A DNA stretch of 64,000 bases from an uncultured Gemmatimonadaceae bacterium (GTDB lineage Bacteria; Gemmatimonadota; Gemmatimonadetes; Gemmatimonadales; GWC2-71-9): assembly GCA_964598655.1 (NCBI GenBank), contig CAZRCT010000002.1, positions 67,146 to 131,145 on the forward strand, written 5' to 3'. The notes under the pieces were generated by a model. The model was not told where the DNA came from. It saw only the letters and a list, made by a program, of their open reading frames with translations, and searched no databases. The translations under genes were made by a program, and so were the position numbers. Of this stretch, positions 23,695 to 41,332 are shown in pieces. Every line of letters starts with the position of its first letter. Positions within the stretch are counted from its first letter, which is position 1.

Positions 23695-24528
23695 ATGACC
23701 CAGTTTCTTGCATCCCTTCGTCCCCAGTCCCGGCGGCTGGCAGGTCTGGGCTTGGCGCTTGGCCTCATGGCCGCCCCGTCCGGCCTCCGGGCGCAGGACC
23801 AGCCGGTGGACGCCCAGCGCCCGCTGGCCACCCGGGCCCAGCTGCAGGCCAGCCTGACCGAGGCGGAACAGGTGGCCAACGGCGGCGGCTTCAGTGCCTC
23901 CTTCCGGGAGGCCAAGCGGGACGAGGCGGCGATGATCCGGGAACGGCTCACCGAGGGCGACTTCTATGTGGGCGACCAGATCACGATCACCGTGGTGGGC
24001 GCCGACACGAGCCTGGGCGGGCTGGGCGGGACCCATTCGGTGTCGTACGGCCGGGTGCTCATCCTGCCGAGCATCGGCGAGGTGCCCCTGCGGGGGGTGC
24101 TCCGCTCGGAGATCCAGACGTACCTCACGGAGCAGATCGGGCGCTTCGTGCGGAACCCCGACATCCGGGTGCGGCCGTCCCTCCGGCTCACGTTCATGGG
24201 GGGCGTGAACACGCCCGGATTCCACCAGGTGGACGCGGACATGCTGGTGAGCGACGCGCTCACGCTGGCCGGCGGCATCAACAACAGCACCGTCCTCAAG
24301 GACACCAAGATCCTGCGGGGCGAGGAGGAGATCGTCGACGGCGAGACGTTCGCCAAGGCGGTGACCTCCGGCCTGACGATCGACCAGTTGAACCTGCGCG
24401 CGGGTGACGAGATCAACGTGGGGGTGCAGAACCGGCGGGATTGGTTCACGACCCTGCGGACCTTCGCGGCAATCCCGGCCCTTATCCTGAGCACGTATGG
24501 CCTTGGGCGGCTCTTCGGCATCTTCTAG
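23695..24528 (+). CDS. Polysaccharide export protein (Wza-like: Poly_export + SLBB)
   Basis: Signal peptide, then GDFYVGDQITITV...LPSIGEVPLRGVLRSEIQTYL...NPDIRVRP...GGVNTPGFHQV...LTLAGGI. It has an unusual hydrophobic C-terminal segment. Confidence 0.75.
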   Translation: MTQFLASLRPQSRRLAGLGLALGLMAAPSGLRAQDQPVDAQRPLATRAQLQASLTEAEQVANGGGFSASFREAKRDEAAMIRERLTEGDFYVGDQITITVVGADTSLGGLGGTHSVSYGRVLILPSIGEVPLRGVLRSEIQTYLTEQIGRFVRNPDIRVRPSLRLTFMGGVNTPGFHQVDADMLVSDALTLAGGINNSTVLKDTKILRGEEEIVDGETFAKAVTSGLTIDQLNLRAGDEINVGVQNRRDWFTTLRTFAAIPALILSTYGLGRLFGIF

Positions 24529-26219: not shown

Positions 26220-26847
26220 GCTGACCAACTGGCTGCCGGCGGGATGCCTGGCGCTCGGCTGCGTGTTCACCCTGGCGGTGGACCGGCAGGTGAAGGCGGA
26301 GCTGCGCGCGCCGCTCGACTCGATCCCGGTGGTCCTGGCCGGCCGCGCGGGCGAGGATCGCGTCATTCCCGATGACCAGCGGCTCGCGGCCGGCATGTCG
26401 CACTACATCAACCGGGTCTTTCCCGGGGACACCGCGCCGTTCGAGATCTACGTCGGCTACTACGACCAGCAGACGCAGGGCAAGACCATCCACTCGCCCA
26501 AGAACTGCCTGCCCGGCTCGGGGTGGGAAGCGCTGCAGCAGCAGACCACGACGGTGCCCACCGCCGCCGGCCCGGTGGTGGTGAACCGCTACCTGCTGCA
26601 GAACAAGGAGGCGCGCGCGCTGGTCTTCTACTGGTACCAGGGGCGCGGCCGGGTGGAGTCGAACGAGTACCGCGTGAAGTGGGAGCTCCTGCGCGACTCG
26701 GCGCTGCGGGGCCGCAGCGAGGAGTCGCTTGTGCGCATCGTGGTGCACCTCAATCCGGCCACCTCCGAGGAACGCGCCGCCGAGGTGGCCACCCAGGTGG
26801 CGCAGGCCCTGGTGCCGGCCGTCGCCGAGGCGATGCCGGCCTGGTAG
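26209..26847 (+). CDS. EpsI-family exosortase-associated protein
   Basis: N-terminal TM segment, the IHSPKNCLPGSGWE motif characteristic of EpsI, and an overlap with the exosortase gene. Confidence 0.75.
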   Translation: MPRELTNWLPAGCLALGCVFTLAVDRQVKAELRAPLDSIPVVLAGRAGEDRVIPDDQRLAAGMSHYINRVFPGDTAPFEIYVGYYDQQTQGKTIHSPKNCLPGSGWEALQQQTTTVPTAAGPVVVNRYLLQNKEARALVFYWYQGRGRVESNEYRVKWELLRDSALRGRSEESLVRIVVHLNPATSEERAAEVATQVAQALVPAVAEAMPAW

Positions 26848-26961: not shown

Positions 26962-28815
26962 ATGCCGGGCTCCCACCGCCGCCCCACTGGGGCCGGGGGC
27001 GGCATGAGCGCGCCGGGACGCCTCGATCCCTGGGCCGAGCTGCGGCTCGCGGCATGCGCCGGCCTCGTGGCCGGCTACCTCGACGTGCTGGCCACGGCGT
27101 GGCGCCGCCTGTTCGTGGAGCCAATCGTCTTCGTGGGCCGCCACCAGGTGTGGACGGCGCCGGTTGCCGACCTGGTGCTCTTCCTGACCGTGGGCGCCGG
27201 GCTGGTGCTGCTGCTGGCGCTGGTCCGCCTCCCCGCGCTGCGAGGCCTGCCGGTGGTGGTGTACACGGCGCTCGCCGTGCTCGGGGCGCTCTACTCCTTC
27301 CCCTCGATCCACCGCGTGGCGGCCCTCCTCCTGGCGCTCGGCGTGGGGGTGCAGGTGGCGCGCTGGGCCGGCCCACGCCGCGCCGGCGTGGACCATGGCA
27401 CCCGGCGACTGCTGCCGTGGCTCGCGGGAGCCACGGCGCTGGTGGCCGCCGGGATGATCGGCTGGCAATCGCTGGCGGAGCGACGGGCCCTGGCGCGCCT
27501 GCCGGCGGCGGGGCGGACGCCGAACGTGCTGCTCATCGTGCTCGACACGGTGCGGGCGATGAACCTGAGCCTCTACGGCTACGGCCGTCCCACCACGCCC
27601 GAATTGGACCGCCGCGCGCCACAGGCCGTGCGCTTCACGCGCGCCATCGCGCCCGGCCCGTGGACGCTGCCCTCCCACGCGGGGATCTTCACCGGGCGTC
27701 CGGTCCCCGAACTCTCCGCCGACTGGATGGTGCCGCTCGACGCCGCGCACCCCGTGCTGGCCGAGGTGCTGGGCCGCGCGGGGTACCGGAGCGCCGGCTT
27801 CGTGGGGAACACCGACTACTGCAGCGAGGAAGTGGGCCTGGCCCGCGGCTTCACGCACTACGAGGACTACGTGCTGACGCCGGGGCAGGTCGCGCGGAGC
27901 GCGGCGCTGTGGCGGATGATCGCGCGGGTGCGCCTGCTGCGGACGCTCGTGGGGTCCCAGGACAATCTGGGGCGCCGCACGGCGCCGGTGCTCATCGACC
28001 GCTTCCTCGGCTGGCTGGGCCGGGATCCCGGCCGGCCGTGGTTTGCCTTCCTCAACCTGTACGACGCCCACCGGCCCTACCTCCCCCCGGCGCCCTTCGA
28101 CACGCTGTTCCAGACGCCCGGCGTGCCCAAGGTGCCGCGCATCGGGCGGGAACAGCCGGGGGAGCCGCGCGACCCGCGGCGGGCCCGCGGCGCCGAGGAC
28201 GCGTACGACAGCGCCATCGCGGCGCTCGACGCGGCGCTGGGCGGGCTCTTCCGCGAGCTCGAGGCGCGGGGGGCGCTGGCCAACACCATCGTGGTCGTCA
28301 CGGCCGACCACGGCGAGGAGTTCCTGGAGCACGGCGTCTGGGACCACGGCAACACGCTCTACCTCACGGCGGTCCACGTCCCGCTCCTCATCTTCACCCC
28401 CGACGGCGACGGCGCCGGCACCACCGTGACGGCGCCGGTGGCGCTCACCGACCTGCCGGCCACCATCATGGAGCTGGCGGGCCTCCCCGGCGGCGCCTTC
28501 CCCGGCCGCTCGCTGCGGCGCCACTGGGCGTCGACCGCGGCGGTGGCGCCCGACACCATCCTCTCCGCAGTGCGCCAGGTGCCGCGCCAGGCCATCCAGT
28601 ACCCGGTGAGCCAGGGCAACATGGCGAGCCTCATGACCGGCGACCTCCGCTACATCCGCAACCTCGGCAGCGAGCGCGAGGAGCTCTACGCCGTGACCGC
28701 GGACCCGCTGGAGCAGCACGACCTGGGCGGCACGCCCGCAGGCCTGGCCGCGCGCGACAGCCTGCGCGCCCGCACCCTGCACCTCTTCCCGCCCGCCGCC
28801 ACCCCGGCCGACTGA
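26962..28815 (+). CDS. Membrane-anchored alkaline-phosphatase-superfamily ('sulfatase-fold') protein, paralog A; lacks the fGly motif
   Basis: 4-5 N-terminal TM segments, then NVLLIVLDTVR...APGPWTLPSHAGIFTGR...GFVGNTDY...TADHGEEFLEHG. An alternative ATG lies at 27004. Confidence 0.8.
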   Translation: MPGSHRRPTGAGGGMSAPGRLDPWAELRLAACAGLVAGYLDVLATAWRRLFVEPIVFVGRHQVWTAPVADLVLFLTVGAGLVLLLALVRLPALRGLPVVVYTALAVLGALYSFPSIHRVAALLLALGVGVQVARWAGPRRAGVDHGTRRLLPWLAGATALVAAGMIGWQSLAERRALARLPAAGRTPNVLLIVLDTVRAMNLSLYGYGRPTTPELDRRAPQAVRFTRAIAPGPWTLPSHAGIFTGRPVPELSADWMVPLDAAHPVLAEVLGRAGYRSAGFVGNTDYCSEEVGLARGFTHYEDYVLTPGQVARSAALWRMIARVRLLRTLVGSQDNLGRRTAPVLIDRFLGWLGRDPGRPWFAFLNLYDAHRPYLPPAPFDTLFQTPGVPKVPRIGREQPGEPRDPRRARGAEDAYDSAIAALDAALGGLFRELEARGALANTIVVVTADHGEEFLEHGVWDHGNTLYLTAVHVPLLIFTPDGDGAGTTVTAPVALTDLPATIMELAGLPGGAFPGRSLRRHWASTAAVAPDTILSAVRQVPRQAIQYPVSQGNMASLMTGDLRYIRNLGSEREELYAVTADPLEQHDLGGTPAGLAARDSLRARTLHLFPPAATPAD

Positions 28816-28833
28816 GCGGCACCCCCCGGCACG

Positions 28834-28870
28834 CCACCGCCCCCGGGAGCGCGGCTCCCGGGGGCGGTGG
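28834..28870. terminator. Bidirectional stem-loop between convergent genes
   Basis: Perfect 17-bp stem: ccaccgcccccgggagc (28834-28850), loop gcg, gctcccgggggcggtgg (28854-28870). Confidence 0.6.
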
Positions 28871-28887
28871 GCCTTGGCACACGCCGC

Positions 28888-30060
28888 TCAGACGGGCCGG
28901 CGCGTCGGCTCCCAGATGGGGTTGAGCTCCCCCCGCAGCGCCTTGGTCCAGGCGATGAACCCCGCGAGGTGCGAGGCCAGCGCAAATCCGCAGAGCGCGG
29001 TGAGCCGCGGCAGCGGCCGGCCCTCGGGCGCCCGCATGGCCACGATGCCGAGCGCAAAGCCGAGCAGCGTGCAGGCCAGCGCGACCGCCGCGAGCCACGA
29101 GGAGAGCGCCAGGAGGGCCAGGCCCACCACCGCCGCCGGCCACACCAGGAACACCAGCCAGCGCACCAGCTTGTGGCTCCACAGCATGAAGGCGAAGCGC
29201 CCGTAGCGGAACGGGTTGAGCAGGTGGCGCTTGAACCAGAGCGTCTCGAGGCCGCGGGCCATGGTGCGGATCTTCCGCTTGTACTCCCGCTGCAGCGACG
29301 CGGTCCGGGGCACCAGGCAGACGGCCTCGTCCACCGACACGGCGCGCAGCCCATGCTCCTGCGCCGTGAGCGCCGAGGCGAAGTCGCGCGAGAGGGCGGC
29401 GGGGACCAGCACCTCGTGCAGCTCGCGGCGGATGGCGTAGAAGCAGCCGCTCGCGCCCACGATGGAGCCGACGATGGTCTCGAGCGAGCGCACCCACATC
29501 TCGTAGCCCACGTAGCCCGACTCGCCCTGGTTGCCCTCCACGGTGATGTCGCCCACGCTCACGTCCCGGCCGGAGGCGACGCCGATGCCGGGGTCCTGGA
29601 ACACCCGCATGAGGGGCTTGAGCGAGCCGGGGAGGATGCGGATGGTGGCGTCGGTGTTGACGATGATCTCGCCGTCGAGGCGCGCCAGCGCCGCGTTCTC
29701 CGCCGCCGTCTTCCCCCCGCGGACCGGCAGGCGCAGCAGCTCCACGCCGCGCTCGGCGTACTCGCCCACGATGGCGTCGGTCTCGTCCTCGGAGGCGTCG
29801 GAGACGATGAGGATCTGGCGCCGGTCCGCCGGGTAGTCGAGGGCCAGCAGCGACTCGATGGTGCGACGGATGGCGCGGGCCTCGTTGTAGGCCGGCACCA
29901 CGATGCTCACCCGCGGCCAGACGGCAGGATCGCCGAGCGGCGGGCGCGGGGGGCGCAGGCTCCCCCACAGGCGCAGGATCGCCGGGTAGAGGAAATACGC
30001 GTACGTGCCGAGCAGGCCCGGCAGCAGGAACAGGAACAGCTCGAGATCCGTGGCGATCAT
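28888..30060 (-). CDS. Membrane-embedded family-2 glycosyltransferase (synthase-like topology)
   Basis: N-terminal TM segment, then VSIVVPAYNEA...ILIVSDASEDETD...IVNTDAT, and a C-terminal bundle of 3-4 TM helices. I did not see a clear QxxRW motif. Confidence 0.8.
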   Translation of the reverse strand: MIATDLELFLFLLPGLLGTYAYFLYPAILRLWGSLRPPRPPLGDPAVWPRVSIVVPAYNEARAIRRTIESLLALDYPADRRQILIVSDASEDETDAIVGEYAERGVELLRLPVRGGKTAAENAALARLDGEIIVNTDATIRILPGSLKPLMRVFQDPGIGVASGRDVSVGDITVEGNQGESGYVGYEMWVRSLETIVGSIVGASGCFYAIRRELHEVLVPAALSRDFASALTAQEHGLRAVSVDEAVCLVPRTASLQREYKRKIRTMARGLETLWFKRHLLNPFRYGRFAFMLWSHKLVRWLVFLVWPAAVVGLALLALSSWLAAVALACTLLGFALGIVAMRAPEGRPLPRLTALCGFALASHLAGFIAWTKALRGELNPIWEPTRRPV

Positions 30061-31217
30061 CAGGGCGTCCGTCCCCGGCGGCCGGGGAGCGAGGTGTAGA
30101 GCGAACGATGCCGCTCGAGCCAGGGCCCGAGCGCGTATTCCGAGGCCAGCCGCGTGTGCGCGCGCGCGACGCGCGCGGCCGCGGCCGGCGGATCATCGAG
30201 GCACCGCCCGAGGGCCATGGCCAGCGCGGCGGGGTCCTCCGGCGGCACCAGCAGCGCCTCGGCGTCGTGGGCCACCACCTGCGGCACCCCGCCGACCTCG
30301 GTGGCCACGATCGGCACGCCGGCCGCCATGGCCTCGAACAGCGCGATCGGGGTGCCCTCGGTGCGGGAACTCAGCACGAACGCATCGAACGCCCCCACGA
30401 AGCGCCCCGCCCCGGCCACCAGCCCGAGCCACCGCACCCGATCGGCGATGCCGAGGCGCGCCGCCTCCGCCTCGAGGGCGGCGCGCTCACGGCCCTCCCC
30501 CACCAGCACGGCGTGCACGTTGGCCCGCGCGAGTCGCGCCACCGCCGCGAGGAAGACGTCCGCCCCCTTCTCCGGCGAGAGCCGCCCGACCCACCCGAGC
30601 AGCGTGGCCCCCGCCGGGAGGCCGAGCGCGGCGCGCGCCTCGGCCGGCGGGAGCGGCGCGGCGTGCGGCGCCCAGGCATTGGGGATGAGGGCGACCTGCT
30701 CCCGGGCAAAGCCCAGCGTGGCGAGCCGTTCCACGATCGGGGCGGAGACCGCCACCACCGCATCGTAGCGCCGCAGGGCCCGGAGTTGCAGGCGTTCGTA
30801 GAGGCGGTTCTTCCAGTCGCCGCCGGTGAAGCCGTGGAGCGTGCTCACCCGCACGGCGCCCCGGCGCCGCGCCACGCTCCCCGCCATCAGGTCCGCCCGG
30901 TAGCCGTGCGTGTGCACCACCTCCGGCCGGAAGCGCTCCATGACGGCGTCCACGGCCCGGCGCTCGGCCAGATACGCCCGAGGCGGCAACTCCAGCGGGA
31001 AGAGCTCGACGCCGAGCCCTTCGAGTTCCCGGAAGGCCGGCGCCAGCACCGCCCCGCGATCCAGCGTGAGCGCGAGCCCCACCCGTCCCCCCAACTCCAC
31101 CCAGCCCCGCGCCAGCAGCTGCACCACGCTCTCGAGCCCGCCAGCAGGCCCGGGGGCCAGGGCATGGAGGACGCTCGGAAGGGGAGGCCGGGGGGCCTGG
31201 GGGGTCGGCATAGGCAT
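30060..31217 (-). CDS. Family-4 (GT-B, 'group 1') glycosyltransferase
   Basis: N-terminal Glyco_trans_4-like region and the C-terminal SSRTEGTPIALFEAMAAGVPIVATEVGGVPQVV (E-x7-E). It overlaps the downstream GT2 start by 1 nt. Confidence 0.85.
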   Translation of the reverse strand: MPMPTPQAPRPPLPSVLHALAPGPAGGLESVVQLLARGWVELGGRVGLALTLDRGAVLAPAFRELEGLGVELFPLELPPRAYLAERRAVDAVMERFRPEVVHTHGYRADLMAGSVARRRGAVRVSTLHGFTGGDWKNRLYERLQLRALRRYDAVVAVSAPIVERLATLGFAREQVALIPNAWAPHAAPLPPAEARAALGLPAGATLLGWVGRLSPEKGADVFLAAVARLARANVHAVLVGEGRERAALEAEAARLGIADRVRWLGLVAGAGRFVGAFDAFVLSSRTEGTPIALFEAMAAGVPIVATEVGGVPQVVAHDAEALLVPPEDPAALAMALGRCLDDPPAAAARVARAHTRLASEYALGPWLERHRSLYTSLPGRRGRTP

Positions 31218-31501
31218 CTTGGTCGATCAACTGCGGCAAGCAAGACCCATACTTGTTTGGCCCGAGCAACGGAACGCGGCCGGGGCGGCAGGGAAGCTAC
31301 AAGACTGTTGCGTCACCGCAACGGAACCGGCCTCCCCTTCGCCCGGAGAATCCGCCTCGCCAGATTGTGGGGAGTCCCGCAGGGCATCCTCCGCCACCTC
31401 GAGGTAAAGATGTCGCTCCGCCGCCCGCCCGGCGTACCGGGCAGAGGCACGCCGGTCTGCCCGGCGTTTTGCCGTACGCCAGAGGCCGGGGAGGGCACCC
31501 G

Positions 31502-33328
31502 ATGACGGCGGCGCCTCCCACCCGGGTCGGAATGCCCGGAGTCCTGCGGCTCGCGGCCGGGTTCGGCCTGGTCGGCGGGCTGCTGGAATCGCTGGCCAAC
31601 GTGGTGCGGTGGGAGTTCGAGTCGGTCCCACTCCGGCTCGGGCTGTACCTGACGTGGATGCCGGCGGCGGCCAACCTGCTGTTCTTCCTGGCGGTCGGAC
31701 TCCTGGTGGCCGGCCTGCACGCCGCCTGGCCCCGGGTGGTGACCCCGGCCCGGATGCTCGGCCTGTTCGGCACGCTGGCCGGGATGGCCGCCCTGCGGGA
31801 ATTTGACGGCCACCTCGGCGTCATCACGGTGGACCTCCTGGCTCTAGGTCTCGGGGTGCAGGCGGCGCAGCGCCTCGGCGGTCGCTGGCCCGCCGTCGAC
31901 CGGTTCCTGAGGACGGCGGTGCCGGCGCTGCTCGGCGTGCTCGCGCTCACGGCGGTGGGCATCGAGGTGCGCTATCGTGTGGGTGAGCGCCGCGCCCTCG
32001 CCGGGCTGCCGCCCGCCGCGGCCGGCGCCCCGAACGTCCTGCTGCTGATCCTCGACACGGTCCGGGCCCAGAGCCTCAGTGCCTACGGCTACCGCGTGCC
32101 GACGACCCCGGTGCTCGCGGGGCTCGCCGCCGAGGGGGTGCGGTTTGCGCGGGCGTACGCCCCGGCGCCGTGGACGCTGGCGTCGCATGCGTCGATCATG
32201 ACGGGGCGGTGGCCGCACCAGCTGTCGGCGGACTGGGAAGTGCCGCTGGATGCGGCGGACTCGACGCTCGCGGAAGCGCTGGCGGCCCGCGGCTACCGCA
32301 CCGGCGCCATGGTGGCCAACCTGAGCTACACGGGGCGCTGGACCGGCCTCGACCGGGGCTTCCAGCACTATGCCGGGCACCCCCTGAGCCTCGCCCAGGT
32401 GCTCCGCACCTCGGCGTTCACCAGCAAGCTGTACGATCTGGCGCCGCTCGCGCGCTGGCTGCCGCCGGCGCGGCTCGACTACCGGCGCAAGACCGCGCGG
32501 GAGGTGAACGCGGAGCTGCTGGCGTGGCTGGACCGCGGGGGAGACCGGCCGTTCTTCGCGTTCCTGAACTATCTGGACGCGCACCGCGAGTACCTGCCGC
32601 TGCCGCCGTTCGACACGGCGTTCGCGGCGATCGAGTACCCCCCGCTCCCCCCGGCCGCGCACGGCGGGCTGTACAAGGACGACCGCCCCCGCCCGATGCG
32701 CCCCTACGACCAGGCCATCGCGTCGATCGACCACGAGATCGGCCGGCTGCTTGCGGACCTCGAGGCGCGCGGGCTGCTCCGCAATACGCTCGTGATCGTG
32801 ACGTCGGACCACGGCGAGGAGTTCGGCGAGCACGGCTTCTACGGGCACGGGCACACGCTCTACCTGCCCGCGGTGGCGGTCCCGCTGGTGCTGGCCTGGC
32901 CGGGCCGGGTGCCCGCCGACACGGTGGTCGAGGCCCGCGCCACCCTGCGGGACCTCGCGGCCACGGTGCTCGACCTCGCGGCACCGGCCGGGAACCGGCC
33001 ATTGCCCGGCCGCTCGCTGGCGCGCTTCTGGCAGCCGGGGACTCCGTCAGCCTCACTGTCGGATTCCGACACCCTGCTCCTCGGGGTCCGCTGGGCCCGC
33101 AACCGCCCGGAATGGGATGCCACCAGCCGGGGTGACGTCCAGGGCGTGGTGACCCAGGCGCTGTCGCTGGTGCGCGACGTGGACCAGCACGTGGAGCTGT
33201 ACGACCTCGCGGCGGACTCGGCGCAGCAGCGGAACCTCGCGCCCGACTCCGCGTGGGCCCCGGCGACGGCGGCCCTGCAGTCTCATCTCGATCGTGAGGC
33301 GGGCCCGCCGCGGCGGGGCCCGCGGTGA
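31502..33328 (+). CDS. Membrane-anchored alkaline-phosphatase-superfamily ('sulfatase-fold') protein, paralog B
   Basis: The start is trimmed to the ATG at 31502 (MTAAPPTRV...). TM module, then NVLLLILDTVR...APAPWTLASHASIMTGR...AMVANLSY...TSDHGEEFGEHG. Confidence 0.8.
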   Translation: MTAAPPTRVGMPGVLRLAAGFGLVGGLLESLANVVRWEFESVPLRLGLYLTWMPAAANLLFFLAVGLLVAGLHAAWPRVVTPARMLGLFGTLAGMAALREFDGHLGVITVDLLALGLGVQAAQRLGGRWPAVDRFLRTAVPALLGVLALTAVGIEVRYRVGERRALAGLPPAAAGAPNVLLLILDTVRAQSLSAYGYRVPTTPVLAGLAAEGVRFARAYAPAPWTLASHASIMTGRWPHQLSADWEVPLDAADSTLAEALAARGYRTGAMVANLSYTGRWTGLDRGFQHYAGHPLSLAQVLRTSAFTSKLYDLAPLARWLPPARLDYRRKTAREVNAELLAWLDRGGDRPFFAFLNYLDAHREYLPLPPFDTAFAAIEYPPLPPAAHGGLYKDDRPRPMRPYDQAIASIDHEIGRLLADLEARGLLRNTLVIVTSDHGEEFGEHGFYGHGHTLYLPAVAVPLVLAWPGRVPADTVVEARATLRDLAATVLDLAAPAGNRPLPGRSLARFWQPGTPSASLSDSDTLLLGVRWARNRPEWDATSRGDVQGVVTQALSLVRDVDQHVELYDLAADSAQQRNLAPDSAWAPATAALQSHLDREAGPPRRGPR

Positions 33329-35246
33329 CCTGATGCCCCACCCCGCGCCCCGCGCCCCCCTCCCCGCCCCGTCCACCGGGGCGGTGCTCTTGGTGGCCGG
33401 CACCGTGGGACTCGGGCTCGGGCTGGCTGAGTTCGGCGCGCTCTGGGTCCGGCGCCTGCTGGTCCACCGGTGGATGGGCGTGGGACCCGACGCGCTCTGG
33501 ATGGCGCCGCTGGCCTATGCCTCACTCTTCGTGGTGGTGAGCGGGCTGCTGGTCATGTTCGGCCGGTGGGTGACCTCGCGCGAACGAGCCGCGGTGCTGG
33601 CCGTCGGCAGCGTGGTGTTCCTCGGAAGCTGGGCCGGGCTGCACATCTTCCACCCGCTGCTGCACAAGGCCGCCATCCTGCTGCTCGCCCTTGGCCTCGC
33701 CCGGCTGGGGACGGAGCCGCTGCTCCGCGCGCGCCCGGGCGTGGCACGCGGGATGGCGCTCGTGCTCGCCCTTCTGGTGGGCGCCGCCGGCCTCCTAGTG
33801 TCCGCCGGCCGCCGGCTCGCGGCGCGCTACCACGCCTCCGAGGTGGCCGACCGGCCGGCGGCCGCGGCCACGGCCCCCAACGTCCTGCTGCTGGTGCTCG
33901 ACACCGTCCGCGGCGCCAACCTGAGCCTCTACGGCTACGGGCGGCCGACCACACCCGTGCTGACGCGCCTCGCCGAGCGCGGCGTGACATTCGAGCGGGC
34001 CTACAGCACCGCGCCGTGGACCCTGCCATCGCACGTGACCCTGCTGACGGGGCGGCACCCGCACGCCTTCCGCGCCGACTGGTGGCAACCCTACCAGGGC
34101 AACGTGCCCTCGGTGGCGGAGGTGCTCGCCGCGGCCGGGTACACCACCGGCGGCTTCGTGGGGAACACCATCAACTGCGCGGTGGAGACCGGGCTCGGGC
34201 GCGGCTTCGACGTGTACCGCGACCACGCCGTGACGCTCGGGGAGGCGGTCGAGGCCACCTCGCTCGGGCGCCTGCTGTCCGGCAACCGCATCGTGCGTCG
34301 CTGGCTGGCCACCGAGGAGCTGCCCGCCCGTCGCCACGCCGCCGACGTGAATCGGGAGGTGCTCACCTGGGTCCGGGCGCAGGGCGAGCGGCCCTGGTTT
34401 GCGTTCGTGAACTACTTCGACGCGCACCAGCCCTACGTGCCCCCGCCCGACCTGGCGAATGCGTTCGGGCCGGCCCCCGCCGCGCCGCCGCTCGCCGAGC
34501 GGGTCTGGAACGGCGGGCGCCCATGGGCGAGAACCCCCGCGTTCAACGACGACACCGCGCGCATGATCGCGGCCTACGACGCCAGCATCGCCGGGCTCGA
34601 CCGGGCCGTCGGCGCCCTGCTCGACAGTCTCCCGCGCGGGCGCCCCACGGTGATCGTCGTGACGGCCGACCACGGCGAGGAGTTCGGCGAGCACGGCTGG
34701 TTTGAGCACGGGCTCACGCTCTATCCGCTGGCGCTGCACGTCCCGCTGGTCATCGTCGCGGAGGGCCGGGCGCCGGCCGGCCTCCGCATCCGGGAGACGG
34801 TGAGCCTGCGCGACGTCATGGCCACGGTTCTCGACCTCGCGACCGTGGAGCCCCCGGTGGCCCCCCGCGGCCGGACGCTCGCCCGGTACTGGCAGGAGGG
34901 GGCAGAGCCGGGCGTCGCGCTGGCCGAACTGAGCTGGGTGCCACGCGCCCCGCGGGGCTCGCCGGCGCAACTCGGGGACGCCCGCGCCCTGATCGTGGAC
35001 GACCACGAATTCATCCTGCGCGGCGACAGCACGGCGGAGCTCCTGGCGCTCGCCGACACGCCCGCCGGCCGCCGGGTTTGGGGCGGTGACGTCCGCCAGA
35101 CCGACTCGGCCGACTGGTACGTCCAGGCGCTGCGGCGGATCGTCCCGGACAGTCTCTGGGAGCATCCCAAGCAGACCGGCTTCACCACCGGCCTCCTGCC
35201 TCCGGCTCCACCAGTGAGTGCATCCCCGCCCGACTCCGTGCCCTGA
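33294..35246 (+). CDS. Membrane-anchored alkaline-phosphatase-superfamily ('sulfatase-fold') protein, paralog C
   Basis: TM module, then NVLLLVLDTVR...STAPWTLPSHVTLLTGR...GFVGNTIN...TADHGEEFGEHG. It overlaps the end of paralog B; an alternative ATG lies at 33333. Confidence 0.8.
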   Translation: MRRARRGGARGDLMPHPAPRAPLPAPSTGAVLLVAGTVGLGLGLAEFGALWVRRLLVHRWMGVGPDALWMAPLAYASLFVVVSGLLVMFGRWVTSRERAAVLAVGSVVFLGSWAGLHIFHPLLHKAAILLLALGLARLGTEPLLRARPGVARGMALVLALLVGAAGLLVSAGRRLAARYHASEVADRPAAAATAPNVLLLVLDTVRGANLSLYGYGRPTTPVLTRLAERGVTFERAYSTAPWTLPSHVTLLTGRHPHAFRADWWQPYQGNVPSVAEVLAAAGYTTGGFVGNTINCAVETGLGRGFDVYRDHAVTLGEAVEATSLGRLLSGNRIVRRWLATEELPARRHAADVNREVLTWVRAQGERPWFAFVNYFDAHQPYVPPPDLANAFGPAPAAPPLAERVWNGGRPWARTPAFNDDTARMIAAYDASIAGLDRAVGALLDSLPRGRPTVIVVTADHGEEFGEHGWFEHGLTLYPLALHVPLVIVAEGRAPAGLRIRETVSLRDVMATVLDLATVEPPVAPRGRTLARYWQEGAEPGVALAELSWVPRAPRGSPAQLGDARALIVDDHEFILRGDSTAELLALADTPAGRRVWGGDVRQTDSADWYVQALRRIVPDSLWEHPKQTGFTTGLLPPAPPVSASPPDSVP

Positions 35247-35530
35247 CGCAATCGGCGGGTGGCCGCTGGCCCTCGCACGGCCGACCCCGCGCGAGGGTTC
35301 AGGCGTCCCGCCGGGTCCCTCTCAAGCTCCCATACCCCCAAGCAGCCCCAGAGCGACGGCGAGGGTTCGGCGCGTCCCGGGGGGACGGTGGCGCCCGCTC
35401 ACCCGGCACCGACAATGACTCTCTAACCTGTTTCACCACATCGTGTTACAGCGACACGCCCTGGCCGCATCGGCGCCGACCGAAGGAACCCACTTCCCTG
35501 GGACTCCTGGCCCCTGGAACCGAGCGCCGC

Positions 35531-35546
35531 TGGCACGGGAATGGCA
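35531..35546 (+). promoter_or_regulatory. Candidate -24/-12 (sigma-54) promoter heading the 35.7-46.8 kb operon
   Basis: TGGCAC-GGGAA-TGGCA has one mismatch to TGGCAC-N5-TTGCA. It lies in a 476-bp intergenic region, 177 nt upstream of the ATG at 35723. Confidence 0.45.
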
Positions 35547-35722
35547 CGGGGAAGTGACGCCATTTTGGCCCCGAAGGCCCCGTCTGCCCGACCCCGGGAG
35601 GCGGCCCCCTCCCGGGATGGACTCCCCCGATCCAGGACAACCCCGGTGGGCGCCCCGCGACCACGCGACCGCCCGCCGCTTCGTGGACCAACCGTGATGA
35701 CCTCGCTCGCCCCGGCACTCGC

Positions 35723-37519
35723 ATGACCGCACCCCTGACCCCGACCGAGCGCGCGGCCCCCGGGCTGGCCGTCGCCGGCATCCTTGGGGGCGTGGCGTTC
35801 TTCCTCGTGGTGGCCAAGGGCGCGGGGACGGCGCCCTTCGGGGCCGCGCTGCCGGCGGCCCTGGCCCTGCTCGCCGTCGGTGGCGCCCTGGTGACGCGCG
35901 AGCTCCGCCGCCCCGCGCCGGCGCGGGCGCCGGAGTGGCCGCTGGTGCTGGTGGTGGCGCTGGCCACCGGCCTGGCGCTCTCCACGCTCTGGGGCCTCTC
36001 GTTCTACCTGCGCTTCCCGGCCGACTTCCTGGGCTTCTGGGAAGGCGACTACCTGAATGACCTCCTCCAGTTCCACAAGGGCGTGCCGCTCTACGGCGAC
36101 GTGCTCGACAACATCGACTCGGTGTACACGCCGGGGGCGCAGCTGCTCACCTACGGGATCGCGCGGCTCTTCGGCGTGGAGTTTTCCGTGGTGCCGCTCC
36201 GGCTGATCCAGTTCTCCTACGTGCTGGTGGCGGCCGCCGTGGCCACGAGCACCGCCGACCACCTGGCGCGCCGCTTCCTGGCGCCGGGCGAGTACGCGGC
36301 CCGGCCGCTCTGGCTCGCCGCCTGGTTCCCGCTGCTGGTGCTGGTGGGGGTGGAGCCGCGCTTCAACCTCAACGTGCACACGCTGCACCCCGACAGCTTC
36401 ACGCTGCTCCTCTCGGCCTGCGGCTTCTGGCTGCTCGCGCGGCACCTGCTGCGGCCCGGCCTCGGCGTCACCGTCGGGATGGCGCTCCTGCCGGCGGTGG
36501 GCTTCTGGTCCAAGCAGAGCCTGGTGATCTGGCTGGTGCTCTTCGGCGGGTACCTGGTGGTGAGCGGGCGACGGGCCCGGGAAATCGTGACCTTCAGCGT
36601 GCTGGGCGCGCTCTTCCTGGCGCTGAGCCTCTGGCTGCTCTTCCGCGTCGGGGGCCCGCAGACCGGCTACTGGATCTTCGGCGTGCTCGGCGACAAGTCC
36701 GTGGGACTCGGCCGGAGCCTGCAGGCCTTCGTGCTGGCGGGCGGCTACGTCGGAATGCTCCTCCTGGCGCTCTGGGAGCTCGTGCTCCGCGACCGGAGCG
36801 TGCCGGCACTGCTGGCCTGGCTGGTGCCGGCGGGCCTGCTGCTCCTCGAGTGCTACACCACCGGCATCGGCTGGCAGAAGAATCACCTGGGGCCCGGCGT
36901 GCTCATGGCCGCCACCTTCGGCCTGGCGACGTTGCCGCGCCTGTGGCAGCGGCTGCTCGCCACGCCCGAGCCGCAGGTCCGGCTGGTGGGGCAGCTCGGG
37001 TTTGCGCTCGGGATCGGCCTCCTGCCGCCGGCGCTGGGCCTGGTGCGCGAGCCGGTCAACAAGGTGCCCGAGGAGGCGCTGGCGCAGGTGGCCGCCATCG
37101 AGGCCGAGTTCCGGGGGATGGACCCCCACAAGGTGCTGCTCGATCGTGGCAGCTGGGTGTACCTGCCTGACACCACGCTGCAGAAGGACCGCGCCTCGGC
37201 GGTGCAGCTCCATCTGGGCGCCAACTCGCCCCGGATGGACCTCGACGCCATCCAGGGCACCCTCGCGCGGATCCGCGCCGAGACGTACGACAAGTTGCTG
37301 ATCCACACCTTCCCGAAGGGCAACCCCTACGACTGGCACTCGCGCGGCTCGGGGATCCCGGAGGCCATCGACTCGCACTACGTGGCGGTGCGGGTGATCC
37401 CGGGCGCCACCGAGCTCGACGAGTGGTGGCCCAAGCGGCTGCTCACGCCGGTGACGGTGTACGTGGCGCGCTCGCGCCTGCCGGCCGGGGCCACCGGTCC
37501 TGCACCGGTGGCGCCATGA
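35723..37519 (+). CDS. Polytopic membrane protein, GT-C-like (DUF2029/GT87-like polyprenol-phosphate-sugar-dependent glycosyltransferase candidate)
   Basis: About 10 or more TM segments. The first-loop pattern FWEGDYLNDLLQFHKGVPLYGD...SVYTPGAQLL resembles the GT87/PimE-type motif. There is a soluble C-terminal domain. Confidence 0.55.
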   Translation: MTAPLTPTERAAPGLAVAGILGGVAFFLVVAKGAGTAPFGAALPAALALLAVGGALVTRELRRPAPARAPEWPLVLVVALATGLALSTLWGLSFYLRFPADFLGFWEGDYLNDLLQFHKGVPLYGDVLDNIDSVYTPGAQLLTYGIARLFGVEFSVVPLRLIQFSYVLVAAAVATSTADHLARRFLAPGEYAARPLWLAAWFPLLVLVGVEPRFNLNVHTLHPDSFTLLLSACGFWLLARHLLRPGLGVTVGMALLPAVGFWSKQSLVIWLVLFGGYLVVSGRRAREIVTFSVLGALFLALSLWLLFRVGGPQTGYWIFGVLGDKSVGLGRSLQAFVLAGGYVGMLLLALWELVLRDRSVPALLAWLVPAGLLLLECYTTGIGWQKNHLGPGVLMAATFGLATLPRLWQRLLATPEPQVRLVGQLGFALGIGLLPPALGLVREPVNKVPEEALAQVAAIEAEFRGMDPHKVLLDRGSWVYLPDTTLQKDRASAVQLHLGANSPRMDLDAIQGTLARIRAETYDKLLIHTFPKGNPYDWHSRGSGIPEAIDSHYVAVRVIPGATELDEWWPKRLLTPVTVYVARSRLPAGATGPAPVAP

Positions 37520-39243
37520 GCCGCGGCCCCGCCCCGCTCAAGGACCTCCTCACCAGCGCCACCTGGGCGGCCGTGCTGTTCGGGCTGCTGGAGGGGGCGC
37601 TCGACATCGTGCTGCGGGGGTACCCGGTCCTGCAGGCCGCCCACAAGCTCGGGCCGGCCGCGCTCTGGATCACACCGCTCGGGAACCTGCTCATCCTGCT
37701 GCCGGTGGCCGTGGTGCTGGCGCTGCTGGCCCGGTCGTGGCCCGCGGCGGGCACCGCCCCCGCCGCGTGGGGCGTCTTCGGGGCGCTCGGCGCCATGGCC
37801 GTGCTCCGCGCGCCCGAGGTGCTGCATCCGGTCACGGTGGCGCTGCTCGGGCTCGGGGTCGGCACCATGGTCTCGCGGGCGGTGCGGGCGCAGGGCGCGG
37901 GGTTCGTCCCCATGCTCCGGCGACGCCTGCTCGTGCTGCCGGCGCTGCTGCTCCTGGCCCTGGGCGGCACGCAGCTGGAACAGCGCCTGACGGAACAGCG
38001 CCGGGTCGCCGCGCTCCCCGCGGCCCCCGCCGGCCGGCCGGACGTCCTCATCCTGATCCTCGACACCGTCCGGCGCGACCGCTTCACCGGCGCCCGCTCG
38101 CTCACGCCCACCCTCGACAGCCTGGCCATGAGCGGCACCGACTTCGCCAACGCGTGGGCGCCGTCGTCGTGGTCACTGCCGTCGCACGCGTCGATCCTGA
38201 CGGGGCGCCCCATCACGGTGCACGGCGCCAACTGGCCGGGGCTCCGGCTCGGGGACAGCATCCCGAGCGTCGCCGAGGCGTTCCGGGATGCGGGGTACGC
38301 GACGGGCGCCTTCTCCAGCAACCACGCGTGGGTCACGCCGGAGTACCTTGGCCGCGGCTTCACGCGCTTCCGGGTGTACGAGCAGCTCGACCTGTGGGAG
38401 CGGACCAGCGCCGGGCGCATCGGCTCGCGGGTGCTCGCGCTCTTCGGCTGGCGGCCGGGACAGCCGGTGGTGCCGGCCACCCGGACCATCCGGCACTACC
38501 TCGACTTCGTCGATGCCCACCCGGGGCGGCCGACGTTCGGCTACATCTGCTTCATGGACGTGAACCGGGCCTTCTACAACCAGCTGCACGGCAAGAAGGC
38601 GTGGGAGCCGAAGCACAGCATGGCCTCGGCCATCGCGGCGTACGACGCCGCCCTCGCCCGCCTCGACGGCGACGTGGCCCAGCTCCTCGACGCCCTGCGC
38701 CGGCGGGGCCGCTTGGCCAACACCGTGATCGTGGTGGCCTCCGATCACGGCGAGTCCTTCGGCCCTGACGACGCGTCCGACCACCTGCCGCGCGGCCACG
38801 GCACCAGCCTGTATCCCGAGCAGGTGCGGGTCCCGTTCTTCGTGACCGGGCCCGGCGTCCCGGCGGGCCCCATCATTCCCGCCGCCACCTCCCTGGTGGA
38901 CGTTCCCGGCCTGGTCCTCGGTCTCGCCGGCCTCCCCGATGCGCGGTTCGCCCCGGGGCGCGCGCTCGCCGCGGTGCGTGCCCCCGCGCAGGCGGACAGT
39001 GTCGGGGAGGTCTTCACCGCGCTCGACTACGACAAGTGGAGCGCCCGCAGCGCCATCCAGGGCACCACCCAGTACATCGCGACGCACGCCCCCGCGCCGG
39101 GGGGCGAGGAGCTCTTCGACCTGTCCGCCGACTCCACGGCGCAGACGAGCCTGCCGGCCGCCGACCCGCGCTGGGGGCCCCTCAAGGCCCTGCTGCAGCA
39201 GTTCGACCCGGCCAGCCCCGCCCCCCGTGCTCCAAGCCGCTAG
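37516..39243 (+). CDS. Membrane-anchored alkaline-phosphatase-superfamily ('sulfatase-fold') protein, paralog D (Ser at the nucleophile position)
   Basis: The ATG at 37516 overlaps the upstream stop (ATGA). TM module, then DVLILILDTVR...APSSWSLPSHASILTGR...AFSSNHAW...ASDHGESFG. Confidence 0.8.
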   Translation: MSRGPAPLKDLLTSATWAAVLFGLLEGALDIVLRGYPVLQAAHKLGPAALWITPLGNLLILLPVAVVLALLARSWPAAGTAPAAWGVFGALGAMAVLRAPEVLHPVTVALLGLGVGTMVSRAVRAQGAGFVPMLRRRLLVLPALLLLALGGTQLEQRLTEQRRVAALPAAPAGRPDVLILILDTVRRDRFTGARSLTPTLDSLAMSGTDFANAWAPSSWSLPSHASILTGRPITVHGANWPGLRLGDSIPSVAEAFRDAGYATGAFSSNHAWVTPEYLGRGFTRFRVYEQLDLWERTSAGRIGSRVLALFGWRPGQPVVPATRTIRHYLDFVDAHPGRPTFGYICFMDVNRAFYNQLHGKKAWEPKHSMASAIAAYDAALARLDGDVAQLLDALRRRGRLANTVIVVASDHGESFGPDDASDHLPRGHGTSLYPEQVRVPFFVTGPGVPAGPIIPAATSLVDVPGLVLGLAGLPDARFAPGRALAAVRAPAQADSVGEVFTALDYDKWSARSAIQGTTQYIATHAPAPGGEELFDLSADSTAQTSLPAADPRWGPLKALLQQFDPASPAPRAPSR

Positions 39244-41332
39244 CCCGGGGGCGCTGCCCCCGCTGGCCACCCCTAACACGGCGGTGGTGGCACCGGTCTT
39301 CTGGGTGGCGCTCGCCATCGCCGGGATCGGCGCCCTGCTCCTGCACCGGGGCGATGGCGCGCGCACGGCGCGCTGGCTCGCACTGCTCGCGGCGGGCACC
39401 GCCGCGATGCTGCAGCTCACCGCGGCGGGCCCGCTGATCCGCTACCAGCACTTCCTGCCGCTCGCCGGGGGCTGGACCACCACCCAGCTGGCCGCCCTCA
39501 CGGTGCTCGGCCTGCAGGCCGCCCTGGTGCTCAGTGCTGTGGTGCGCCGGGGCGGCGGATTGCTGGGCTGGGTGCGGGCACGGTGGTCGGGCGGCAAGGT
39601 GGCGGTGCTGGGGCTGGCCCTGGTGGGGATGTCCGCCACGCTGAGCGCATCGCCGCGGGCCTATGGGCAGGAGCTGCTGCTGGCGGGGCTGGCGCAGCTG
39701 CTGCAGCTCATCACGCTCGGCATGGCGCTCGAGGCGCTGCCGGCGCGTTGGGCGGCGCGCGCGGCCGCCTGGTTCGACGGGGCCGAGGCGGGGCGGGATC
39801 CCGTCCCGCTCCTCATGGCCGCGCTCAGCGTGGGGCTGTCGGCGCTCCTCGCCGTGCTGGTGTACGAGCGGCATCCCCACATCCCCGACGAGGCCGCGTA
39901 CCTGCTGCAGGCGCGGACCTTCGCGCGCGGGGCGCTCACGCTGCCCACGCCGCCGGTGCTGCCCGCGTTCGACGTGGACATCACCCTCAACGACCACGGC
40001 CGCTGGTTCTCCGCCTTCCCGCCCGGCTGGCCGGCCATCCTCGCGCTCGGGGCGCTGGTGCGCGCCGAGTGGCTGGTGAACCCGCTGCTCGGCGGCCTCA
40101 ACGTGCTGCTGGCCTACGCCGTGACCCGGCGGCTCTACGACCGCCGCACGGCGCGCGTGGCTGCGCTGCTGCTGGCCGCCTCGCCCTGGCACCTGTTCCT
40201 GGCCATGAGCTTCATGAGCCAGACGGTGACCCTCACGGTGGGCCTCCTCGCCGCGCTGGGGGTGGTCCGCTGGCGGCAGGGCGACTCGCCGGCGTGGCTG
40301 GTGCTGGCGGGCGCGGCGGCGGGCTGGGCCGGCCTCACGCGCCCGCTCGACGGCGTCCTCGTGGCCGGCGCCACCGGCCTGTGGCTCCTCCTGCCCGGCG
40401 ACGGGGTGAACGCCGCCCGCGCGCGCCTCACCGGCGCGGTCGCCTACGGCACCGGCATGGGGCTGACGGGCGCGCTGACGCTGCTGTACAACCGCGCCCT
40501 CACCGGCTCGCCGCTCAAGTTCCCCGTGATGCTCTGGTCCGACCGGGTGTACGGCCCGGGGAAGAATGCGCTCGGCTTCGGCCCGGATCGCGGCTTCGGC
40601 TGGACCTCGCTCGATCCCTTTCCGGGTCACGGCTGGAAGGACGTGCTGGTCAACGCCAACCTCAACACCTTCCAGGTCAACACGGAACTGCTGGGCTGGG
40701 GCACGGGGTCGCTGCTCCTCGTGGTGGCGTACTGCCTCCTCCGCCGCATCGAGCGCCGGGACCTGGGACTCCTGCTGGCCACCTTCCTGGTGGTGGGGCT
40801 CCACGCATTCTACTGGTTCAGCGGCGGGCCGGACTTCGGCGCGCGCTACTGGTTCCTGGTGATCTACCCGCTCGTGGCCCTCGCCGCGCGCGCGGTGCTG
40901 GCCTTCGAGGCGGGCTCCTCCCTGCCCGGGCGACCCCTCGCGGCCGTCCTGCTGCTGTCGGTGGTGACCCTGCTGGTCTTCCTGCCCTGGCGCGCCCTCG
41001 ACAAGTACTGGCACTATCGCCGCATGCGGCCCGGCGTGGCCGCCCTCGCCGATTCGGCCGGCTTTGGCCGGAGCCTGGTGCTGGTGCAGGGGATCCGGTT
41101 CCCCGATTACGCCGGCGCGGCCACCTTCAACCCGCTCGACCTCCAGGCCAACCAGCCCCTGTACGCCTTCGACGCCGACTCGACGCTCCGCGCTGGAGTG
41201 CTGGCCGCGTATCCCGAGCGCCCGGTGTGGGTCATCGAGGGCCCGAGCCGCACCGGCGGACCGTACCGCATCGTGGCAGGACCCTTCCCGCCGGGCGCGC
41301 CCGTGACCACGCCGATCCCGCGGCGCCCGTGA
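39227..41332 (+). CDS. GT-C glycosyltransferase (ArnT/PMT-like, GT39/GT83-type) with an extra N-terminal polytopic extension
   Basis: ERHPHIPDEAAYLLQARTFARG is the DE/loop-1 motif of ArnT/PMT-type enzymes. There are many TM helices. The start is uncertain (GTG at 39227, or at 39284/39287). Confidence 0.65.
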   Translation: MLQAASPGALPPLATPNTAVVAPVFWVALAIAGIGALLLHRGDGARTARWLALLAAGTAAMLQLTAAGPLIRYQHFLPLAGGWTTTQLAALTVLGLQAALVLSAVVRRGGGLLGWVRARWSGGKVAVLGLALVGMSATLSASPRAYGQELLLAGLAQLLQLITLGMALEALPARWAARAAAWFDGAEAGRDPVPLLMAALSVGLSALLAVLVYERHPHIPDEAAYLLQARTFARGALTLPTPPVLPAFDVDITLNDHGRWFSAFPPGWPAILALGALVRAEWLVNPLLGGLNVLLAYAVTRRLYDRRTARVAALLLAASPWHLFLAMSFMSQTVTLTVGLLAALGVVRWRQGDSPAWLVLAGAAAGWAGLTRPLDGVLVAGATGLWLLLPGDGVNAARARLTGAVAYGTGMGLTGALTLLYNRALTGSPLKFPVMLWSDRVYGPGKNALGFGPDRGFGWTSLDPFPGHGWKDVLVNANLNTFQVNTELLGWGTGSLLLVVAYCLLRRIERRDLGLLLATFLVVGLHAFYWFSGGPDFGARYWFLVIYPLVALAARAVLAFEAGSSLPGRPLAAVLLLSVVTLLVFLPWRALDKYWHYRRMRPGVAALADSAGFGRSLVLVQGIRFPDYAGAATFNPLDLQANQPLYAFDADSTLRAGVLAAYPERPVWVIEGPSRTGGPYRIVAGPFPPGAPVTTPIPRRP

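Follow-up and report, generated by a model that had tools for sequence, protein, structure and literature searches.

Four sulfatase-fold membrane proteins of a Gemmatimonadota exosortase island lack formylglycine-sulfatase hallmarks and are candidate periplasm-facing phosphoryl transferases

We analyzed a 64,000-nucleotide stretch of DNA from an uncultured Gemmatimonadaceae bacterium (GenBank assembly GCA_964598655.1, contig CAZRCT010000002.1, positions 67,146 to 131,145 of the forward strand), hereafter the window, in which four genes, here called S1 to S4, encode polytopic proteins with a sulfatase-fold domain inside an exosortase/exopolysaccharide (EPS) island (Table 1). As the initial annotation, made from the sequence alone, had described, the four genes have one architecture, namely an N-terminus of membrane helices (~175 amino acids) followed by a PF00884 domain. 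Pfam scans located this domain at approximately residues 175–505, with E-values of 8e-33 to 1e-46 (residues 187–507 and E 5e-42 in S1; E 1e-46 in S2, which also matched PF16347 with E 3e-8). The G+C content at third codon positions of the four open reading frames (ORFs) was 0.89–0.95 in a window of ~72% G+C, which marks all four as typical coding sequence for the window. Pairwise identities among the paralogs ranged from 33 to 42%; full-length identity to S1 was 42% for S2, 38% for S3, and 33% for S4. The GTG at 33294 that had been taken as the start of S3 is possible, but the ATG at 33333 gave the better fit to the homolog alignment.

Table 1. Positions of S1 to S4, their parts, and neighboring genes in the window (aa, amino acids; GT, glycosyltransferase; fGly, formylglycine).
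Feature	Position	Strand	Remarks
S1 (paralog 1, 617 aa)	26962–28815	+	ORF and translation; alternative ATG at 27004
S1 membrane module (aa 1–186)	26962–27519	+	
S1 sulfatase-fold domain	from 27520	+	
S1 Thr235 codon	27664–27666	+	Predicted nucleophile (W-T-L-P-S-H); aligned with the fGly Cys/Ser column and the EptA catalytic Thr
S2 (paralog 2, 608 aa)	31502–33328	+	Translation; ATG preceded by GGGGAGGG stretch
S2 membrane module	31502–32029	+	
S2 catalytic domain	32030–33328	+	Includes C-terminal SGSH_C-like subdomain
S2 Thr225 codon	32174–32176	+	Predicted nucleophile (W-T-L-A-S-H); sulfatase and EptA alignments
S3 (paralog 3, 637 aa)	33333–35246	+	ATG at 33333, 4 nt past the S2 stop
S3 Thr230 codon	34020–34022	+	Predicted nucleophile (W-T-L-P-S-H); column alignment
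S4 (paralog 4, 575 aa)	37516–39243	+	Most divergent; 4-nt overlap of its ATG with the preceding stop codon
S4 Ser220 codon	38173–38175	+	Nucleophile position (W-S-L-P-S-H); column alignment
Exosortase EpsH	25314–26219	+	PF09721 E 2e-61; TIGR02602 150.9 bits (cutoff 105.6)
EpsI	26209–26847	+	PF11984 E 3e-42; TIGR02914 101.9 bits (cutoff 42.8)
GT2	28888–30060	-	Divergent, between S1 and S2
GT4	30060–31217	-	Divergent, between S1 and S2
Polytopic membrane protein, 598 aa	35723–37519	+	4-nt overlap of its stop with the start of S4; highly hydrophobic
PMT_2 (GT-C), epimerase, and short GT2	38939–43107	+	Downstream of S4; epimerase 41344–42303, short GT2 42325–43107

The key columns of the catalytic domain were set by HMMER alignment to PDB entries 7stt and 3ed4 and by hhalign alignment to Escherichia coli AslA, a sulfatase of family S1 (a family name unrelated to our gene label). 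Both methods agreed in placing Thr, or Ser in S4, on the Cys/Ser column that holds formylglycine (fGly) in sulfatases. Likewise, His stood on the Arg column of C/S-x-P-x-R and D-T on the D-D metal motif, and the distal sulfatase Lys column fell within one residue of the invariant His449 (residue numbers are those of S2 unless stated otherwise). The sulfatase hallmarks that had been reported missing are indeed missing from all four proteins: the nucleophile motif reads WTLPSH in S1 and S3, WTLASH in S2, and WSLPSH in S4, the second Asp of the DD motif is Thr, and the GKWH position is occupied by GFVGN, AMVAN, or AFSSN. The motif N/DVL(L/I)(I/L)(V/I)LDTVR was found in 4/4 paralogs, and so was DHGE, although the '.FG.HG' continuation described together with it fails in S4. 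Whereas S1 conserves 15 of 15 key residues, the D-A-H motif of S4 has Asn for His (H361).

It is extremely unlikely that these proteins are true sulfatases working with an unconventional nucleophile or through a hidden fGly site. In favor of such a reading, sulfatases are their best matches in databases, and the fGly column of S4 holds Ser, the residue of the known Ser-type sulfatases. However, the Arg of C/S-x-P-x-R is His almost throughout (119/119 and 95/96 in the two homolog sets described below), neither the Lys/His of GKWH nor the second Lys is conserved, and the metal ligands are of the D/T/D/H type. A substitute fGly site was also looked for. S2 contains no Cys at all, no [CS]x[PA]xR match lies within the catalytic core of the paralogs, and the matches elsewhere are off-core and not common to them; nor did Pfam scans of the 49 window ORFs (45 besides S1 to S4) reveal a formylglycine-generating enzyme or an anaerobic sulfatase-maturating enzyme. 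Neither another residue serving as the fGly site nor a maturase among these ORFs was thus found. Membership in the fGly sulfatases of family S1 was rejected on these grounds: the fold agrees, while C/S-x-P/A-x-R and the sulfate-binding Lys/His are absent. The closest database protein, 92% identical and from a Gemmatimonadota metagenome-assembled genome (MAG), and the other homologs bear no annotation beyond 'sulfatase', 'arylsulfatase A-like enzyme', or 'sulfatase-like hydrolase/transferase'. Despite this public annotation, the sequence evidence says that S1 to S4 and their relatives are not fGly sulfatases.

Alignment with E. coli EptA by hhalign placed D185, T225, H361, D436, H437, and H449 on the E, T, H, D, H, and H columns of EptA, which we take to be the metal and substrate ligands or catalytic residues of EptA/MCR-1. 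In the same alignment, SDHGEEFGEHGFYGHG of S2 paired with SDHGESLGENGIYLHG of EptA. The suggestion of an EptA-like catalytic set was accordingly matched residue by residue. Conservation was assessed in two sets of homologs. Among 119 full-length S2 hits, D185, W224, H229, N273, H361, D436, H437, and H449 were all at 100%, and the nucleophile was T in 115 and S in 4. The 96 full-length proteins retrieved via the membrane module alone had T in 94 and S in 2, with D185, N273, H361, D436, H437, and H449 again at 100%. Cys at the nucleophile column occurred in none of these 119 + 96 proteins, and in none of the 130 ORFs with a residue there that were collected from 80 related loci in a scan of one genome per species. 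All four paralogs share the His on the Arg column with 119/119 and 95/96 proteins of the two sets; distant locus ORFs rarely have Gln, Phe, Ile, or Val there. Overall, the EptA-type catalytic positions were 98–100% conserved. These alignments predict a metal site of Asp185/Thr225/Asp436/His437 with His361 and His449 alongside, which is the constellation of phosphoethanolamine transferases.

The most divergent lineage departs from this pattern in part. S4 and its ortholog in a syntenic Gemmatimonadota MAG (L006:16890-19352) both have Ser at the nucleophile and Asn for the D-A-H His, and the S4-type gene of an Anaerolineales locus (L070:16262-18109) shares the Asn, keeps Thr, and has Gln for the motif His (W-T-L-P-S-Q). 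The S4 subclade may, judging by these residues, be functionally distinct or partly disabled. An inactive-scaffold role has been debated for YejM/PbgA, and the loss of one active-site His in S4 and its relatives, together with weak partial matches to the YejM model NF038282 (16–37 bits against a cutoff of 825), would suit an interpretation of the family as catalytically dead scaffolds or regulators. We regard that interpretation as very unlikely, because the metal and nucleophile positions are kept at 98–100% in >200 diverse homologs. This retention indicates selection on catalysis and argues for an active enzyme that would use a Thr alkoxide on a D/T/D/H metal site. Such a site would in turn point to phosphoryl transfer rather than to fGly-based sulfate-ester hydrolysis. 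YejM/PbgA/LapC membership itself was rejected, since the family-level score was not reached.

To analyze the fold, S2 was modeled with AlphaFold2 from 57 homologs (predicted local distance difference test score [pLDDT] 95.1; predicted template modeling score [pTM] 0.94). The best 50 Foldseek matches of this model in the PDB were all sulfatases of family S1 or phosphonate monoester hydrolases (PMHs), at 16–24% identity; the best E-value was 5e-22, with template modeling (TM) scores of 0.6–0.7 on the target, and phmmer reached E 2e-24 against the same groups. Profile comparisons by one common method, hhalign, aligned the catalytic domain with AslA at 98.6% probability (E 5e-16), with EptA at 95.6% (E 1e-8; catalytic domain only, 20% identity), with OpgB at 29.5% (E 6e-4), and with BcsG at 1% (E 0.05; 29 columns). 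No NCBIfam model reached its cutoff for S1 to S4, and the best partial matches were to arylsulfatase and choline sulfatase models. The EptA/MCR models scored 15–46 bits against cutoffs of 500–1250, the LtaS model matched S4 alone with 15.7 bits against a cutoff of 970, and none of the PEP-CTERM-associated models matched S1 to S4.

Several family assignments were weighed on these results. EptA membership was set aside because only the catalytic domain aligns, the scores lie far below the NCBIfam cutoffs, and the membrane module is unrelated; for LtaS/OpgB the OpgB match was marginal, and for BcsG the hhalign probability of 1% was accompanied by no match to a BcsG Pfam family. EfAS, an Mn-dependent arylsulfatase (PDB 9koq) examined as a possible Thr-type relative, was rejected because it uses Cys/fGly. 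The initial annotation had called the four proteins candidate LtaS/BcsG/EptA-like transferases. Its active-site set and its Thr/Ser nucleophile stood, the latter confirmed at the nucleophile column by both HMMER and hhalign alignment; membership in those families did not, as hhalign and Foldseek favored sulfatases and PMHs over EptA, OpgB, and BcsG. By sequence and by model, the scaffold belongs with the arylsulfatase/PMH branch and not with the BcsG or EptA family, nor probably with that of LtaS.

The N-terminal module, proposed to span about 190 residues with four to five helices, comprises ~175 residues (186 in S1) and four or five helices. Family-averaged hydropathy delimited hydrophobic segments at 15–33, 55–72, 84–99, 108–119, and 140–153, and the stretch richest in K/R (121–139) lies just ahead of the last of them. 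By the positive-inside rule, this arrangement places the following domain outside the cytoplasm, whether the crossings number four or five. Furthermore, those relatives that lack the membrane module have lipoprotein or Tat-type signal peptides at their N-termini, which likewise indicates an extracytoplasmic domain. The catalytic domain is therefore predicted to be extracytoplasmic behind a polytopic module, in agreement with the membrane-anchored extracytoplasmic alkaline-phosphatase-fold design first suggested. The G-L-L-E/D landmark was confirmed in helix 1. Two other landmarks held in part: S2 reads W-M-P instead of W-x-x-P, and ALG(L/V)GVQ is true for S1 and S2 only. W52 and G116 are invariant, and across phyla G26, E29, W52, and G116 are invariant or nearly so.

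No relative of this module was recognized among known structures or families. Pfam had no match in the first ~175 residues, PF08019 included. The isolated module was modeled with a pLDDT of 95.8, and Foldseek against the PDB returned no match below E 0.6 (EptA, 5fgn, ranked 45 with E 3.5 and TM 0.32); the hhalign alignment to EptA does not reach the N-terminus of S2. A profile of the module matched 2,705 clusters (50% identity) at E ≤1e-3 and 1,841 at E ≤1e-10, always at the N-terminus, in full-length proteins of ~600 residues. As relatives manage with a lipid anchor, so conserved a module may bind something in the membrane, and its conservation across phyla and constant N-terminal fusion argue for a role beyond anchoring.

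The same observations bear on whether the enzymes transfer or hydrolyze. With the same active site and location, they might be membrane-tethered periplasmic phosphodiesterases or phosphatases that possibly trim phospho-substituents, process glycan intermediates linked to polyprenyl-(pyro)phosphate or release them, or serve in phosphate scavenging. Sulfatases of family S1 and PMHs, which are closest in both structure and sequence, are hydrolases; partial PF01663 matches occur (for example, residues 184–244 of S3, E 4e-9 in the Pfam scan); module-less lipoprotein or secreted relatives carry the same catalytic residues; and we take T-[LF]-P-[SN]-H-x4-T-G to resemble the nucleophile motif of phosphodiesterases of the nucleotide pyrophosphatase/phosphodiesterase (NPP) type. 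However, a polytopic module with invariant intramembrane E29 and G116 exceeds what an anchor needs, where relatives use single-helix or lipid anchors, and the copies stand in a glycan-biosynthesis cluster, with S2 to S4 running into GT-C, epimerase, and GT2 genes, rather than in a catabolic or Pho-type setting. We consider hydrolase function somewhat unlikely, while giving it serious weight.

The surroundings of S1 to S4 agree with the exosortase/EPS island that had been recognized initially. Both EpsH and EpsI scored above their NCBIfam cutoffs, and genes for a priming sugar transferase, Poly_export, and Wzz and for GT2, GT4, and GT-C enzymes lie nearby. Upstream of S1 to S4 are a histidine kinase, a sigma-54 regulator, Wzz/tyrosine kinase, a REC/GGDEF-like protein, Poly_export, the priming sugar transferase, EpsH, and EpsI, and S1 starts 115 nt beyond the epsI stop. 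S2, S3, the 598-residue protein, S4, PMT_2, the epimerase, and the short GT2 form a co-directional run with short gaps or overlaps. No lipid A or lipopolysaccharide (LPS) core genes were recognized in the window by Pfam scans.

The 598-residue protein has no Pfam or NCBIfam match. Beyond the syntenic MAG, it has one homolog in the 80 loci (Anaerolineales L070:14700-16361; 41% identity, E 3e-103), which adjoins an S4-type paralog of the His-to-Asn variant; this suggests that the 598-residue protein and the S4-type gene are a conserved functional pair. On the regulatory side, the histidine kinase and sigma-54 response regulator lie at 16862–19827 (minus strand), and the regulator resembles the PEP-CTERM-box regulator (TIGR02915, 377 bits, below its cutoff of 503). 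A protein with REC and degenerate GGDEF domains (22346–23713, minus strand) flanks the EPS genes. These three proteins likely regulate the island. The region 38939–58913 holds two PMT_2 (GT-C) proteins, three short GT2s, three epimerases/dehydratases, a sugar-nucleotidyltransferase, an FAD amine-oxidase-like protein, and a GMC oxidoreductase, and it looks like a polyprenyl-phosphate-sugar-dependent periplasmic glycosylation system. It is followed at 58914–60812 (plus strand) by a protein with Big_2 and SBBP beta-propeller repeats that is likely located at the surface or secreted. A simple regular-expression search of the window for PEP-CTERM tails returned one spurious antisense ORF only. Genes at 151–7855 (molybdopterin oxidoreductase/formate-dehydrogenase-like, UbiD and UbiA homologs, and squalene/phytoene synthase) are unrelated to S1 to S4.

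All 80 related loci belong to MAGs, which represent Gemmatimonadota, Acidobacteriota, Planctomycetota (Isosphaeraceae), Chloroflexota, and Myxococcota-like lineages. Co-location with epsH was analyzed by single-query tblastn within ±10 kb, with some loci being short. EpsH and EpsI homologs were found within 10 kb in 2 of the 80 loci (L005 and L006), both from Gemmatimonadota and syntenic with the window; there the first copy directly follows epsI and the others are interleaved with GT genes, as in the window. The exosortase link that had been anticipated for the family is therefore lineage-specific and was not found beyond these two loci. GT2, GT4, epimerase, or PMT_2 neighbors were present in 20 of the 54 related loci of at least 15 kb. 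By number of loci, the neighbors were PF01663 pairs (18), GT2 (17), GT4 (10), FG-GAP/ASPIC (10), epimerases (9), and PMT_2 (5). Homologs of the window GT2 and GT4 flank family genes in L001, L005, L006, and L016, the trio of PMT_2, epimerase, and short GT2 recurs in L012, and a PMT_2 homolog alone occurs in L001. The PF01663 (type I phosphodiesterase/NPP) pair, of ~620 and ~500 residues, adjoins a family gene in Acidobacteriota and Anaerolineae (L008:6568-9890, L013:12013-15408, L027:12726-16095, L012:2353-5654, and 14 further loci). Its proteins begin with MKKVIVIGLDG, have no signal peptide, and are probably cytoplasmic by these sequence features; the window has no homolog.

This distribution raises the prospect that the enzymes are phospho-transferases acting on an acceptor other than EPS, such as lipid A/LPS core, another glycolipid, periplasmic glucans, or protein, as for EptA/B/C, OpgB/E, and PptA, and that the adjacency to epsH-epsI is incidental. 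The rarity of nearby EpsH (2/80 loci within 10 kb) and the occurrence of the family in phyla and loci without a nearby exosortase speak for it, as do the recurrent GT-C (PMT_2), short GT2, and epimerase/dehydratase partners, a set that we take to be an ArnT/ArnC/ArnA-type lipid A modification toolkit. In contrast, the first copy stands right after epsI in the window, L006, and L005, with the rest among the GT genes of the cluster, and the window offers no recognizable lipid A or LPS core genes. We judge a non-EPS acceptor to be quite unlikely, although this proposal partly overlaps with the one that we prefer.

Tandem paralogs are common in the related loci, with up to seven copies in L005, six in L021, and four each in L001 and L018. 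In a neighbor-joining tree, branches were long, each window copy paired with its counterpart in the syntenic L006, and S1, S2, and S4 grouped with genes of other genomes, S4 with the Anaerolineales locus L070. Long branches and grouping with genes of other genomes indicate that the fourfold set is an ancient paralogy; the fourfold amplification inferred at first is not a recent duplication.

Taken together, the most likely role of the family is the addition or removal of phosphate-linked groups on sugars of the cell envelope. More specifically, we propose that S1 to S4 are metallo-phosphoryl transferases that face the periplasm, use a Thr nucleophile, and act on glycans of the envelope, a proposal to which we assign a probability of roughly 0.45. 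From the architecture, residues, conservation, closest folds, extracytoplasmic placement, and neighborhood described above, we infer that the chemistry is phosphoryl and not sulfuryl, that the group is transferred and not hydrolyzed off, and which donor and acceptor take part. As inner-membrane enzymes, they would hold an alkaline-phosphatase-superfamily domain on the periplasmic side by a four- or five-helix N-terminal bundle. The domain would derive from the arylsulfatase/PMH branch and would have lost the chemistry of that branch, fGly being replaced by Thr225 and the cationic sulfate-binding Arg, Lys, and Lys by His229, a small residue, and His449. Metal-activated Thr225 would attack a phosphodiester presented by the membrane module, most plausibly a phospholipid head group or otherwise another lipid-linked phosphate, and a covalent phospho-Thr intermediate would allow ping-pong transfer of the phospho-substituent to a hydroxyl of an envelope glycan. 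In the window, this glycan would most likely be the polymer of the surrounding GT2, GT4, GT-C, Wzz, and export genes, and acceptor position or substituent would be what distinguishes the four old paralogs.

Several points weigh against this proposal. Both sequence and fold place hydrolases, not transferases, nearest to S1 to S4. Soluble lipoprotein relatives share the active site, cannot use the module, and would more naturally be hydrolases. One active-site His is missing in S4. DSSP assignment of the model gives a single helix at 107–167, so that the crossings may number four or five. The commonest neighbors in other phyla are the cytoplasmic PF01663 proteins, which have no obvious role in the scheme, and LPS or some other glycolipid, not EPS, could be the acceptor. 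A bolder extension, which we regard as possible though doubtful, is that the proteins constitute a new class of lipid-dependent phospho-substituent transferases, with an origin in the fGly-sulfatase lineage, an fGly-to-Thr switch, an EptA-convergent site, and a recruited membrane module that has no known structural relative. In Gemmatimonadota, four to seven such paralogs in an array would then set phospho-groups in a combinatorial pattern on the exosortase-associated EPS.

These results matter for annotation, as the labels 'sulfatase' and 'arylsulfatase A-like' touch 1,841 clusters at E ≤1e-10 and 2,705 at E ≤1e-3. The phyla concerned, Gemmatimonadota, Acidobacteriota, Planctomycetota, Chloroflexota, and Myxococcota, live in soil and sediment, where sulfatase counts are often used for ecological inference. 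A sulfatase-branch scaffold with a site of the phosphoethanolamine-transferase type would also show, as a natural experiment, how the nucleophile can be switched within the alkaline phosphatase superfamily. Transferase function, if real, would point to new phospho-decorations of envelope glycans in poorly studied, mostly uncultured phyla, with possible effects on charge, the binding of metals, aggregation, and resistance to phages or antimicrobials.

In the literature on exosortase/PEP-CTERM loci, sulfatases, and phospho-transferases, we found no description of this family. The initial statement that no such module was known at exosortase loci needs qualification: uncharacterized 'sulfatase' genes, which may or may not belong to this family, have been tabulated in PEP-CTERM EPS clusters, namely RGS1_10427 of Rubrivivax gelatinosus and Tmz1t_3253 of Thauera MZ1T (PMC3684757). 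Among known systems, sulfatases of family S1 and PMHs (PDB 9fo1, 7stt, 3ed4, 4uph, and 2vqr; AslA) are closest to the catalytic domain in sequence and fold. They share the two-subdomain layout with a C-terminal SGSH_C-like sheet, and their first metal Asp, D-H/N pair, and mid-domain His are retained in S1 to S4. Unlike them, S1 to S4 have a Thr/Ser nucleophile that is not convertible by known machinery, His for Arg, D-T for D-D, no Lys/His of GKWH, and His for the distal Lys, and they carry a polytopic N-terminal module instead of a signal peptide. EptA/MCR-1 (5fgn) resembles them in its polytopic N-terminus, its periplasmic alkaline-phosphatase-fold domain with a Thr nucleophile, and a residue-for-residue catalytic set that includes the SDHGE..GE.G.Y.HG stretch; however, S1 to S4 have an unrelated membrane module and a C-terminal subdomain of the sulfatase type, their match to EptA is weaker than that to AslA, and their NCBIfam scores of 30–46 bits compare with cutoffs of 500–660.

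The likeness to LtaS, OpgB, and GacH would lie, by analogy, in the general design and mechanism class, that is, lipid head-group transfer via phospho-Thr to an extracytoplasmic glycopolymer, whereas the membrane domains differ and OpgB gave only the 29.5% hhalign probability noted above. GacH is described as decorating a cell-wall polysaccharide in bioRxiv 10.1101/337519. With BcsG, the resemblance would be a functional analogy only, that of a membrane-anchored alkaline-phosphatase-fold enzyme decorating an exported polysaccharide, but homology is not detectable beyond the superfamily. The nucleophile of BcsG is Ser, and its Pfam family is a different one. A polytopic anchor with an extracytoplasmic alkaline-phosphatase-fold domain and a Thr/Ser nucleophile is thus already known from EptA, LtaS, OpgB, GacH, and BcsG. 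What we have not found described is the combination in one protein of a sulfatase/PMH-branch scaffold and its C-terminal subdomain with an EptA-like catalytic set and a membrane module for which no relative is known.

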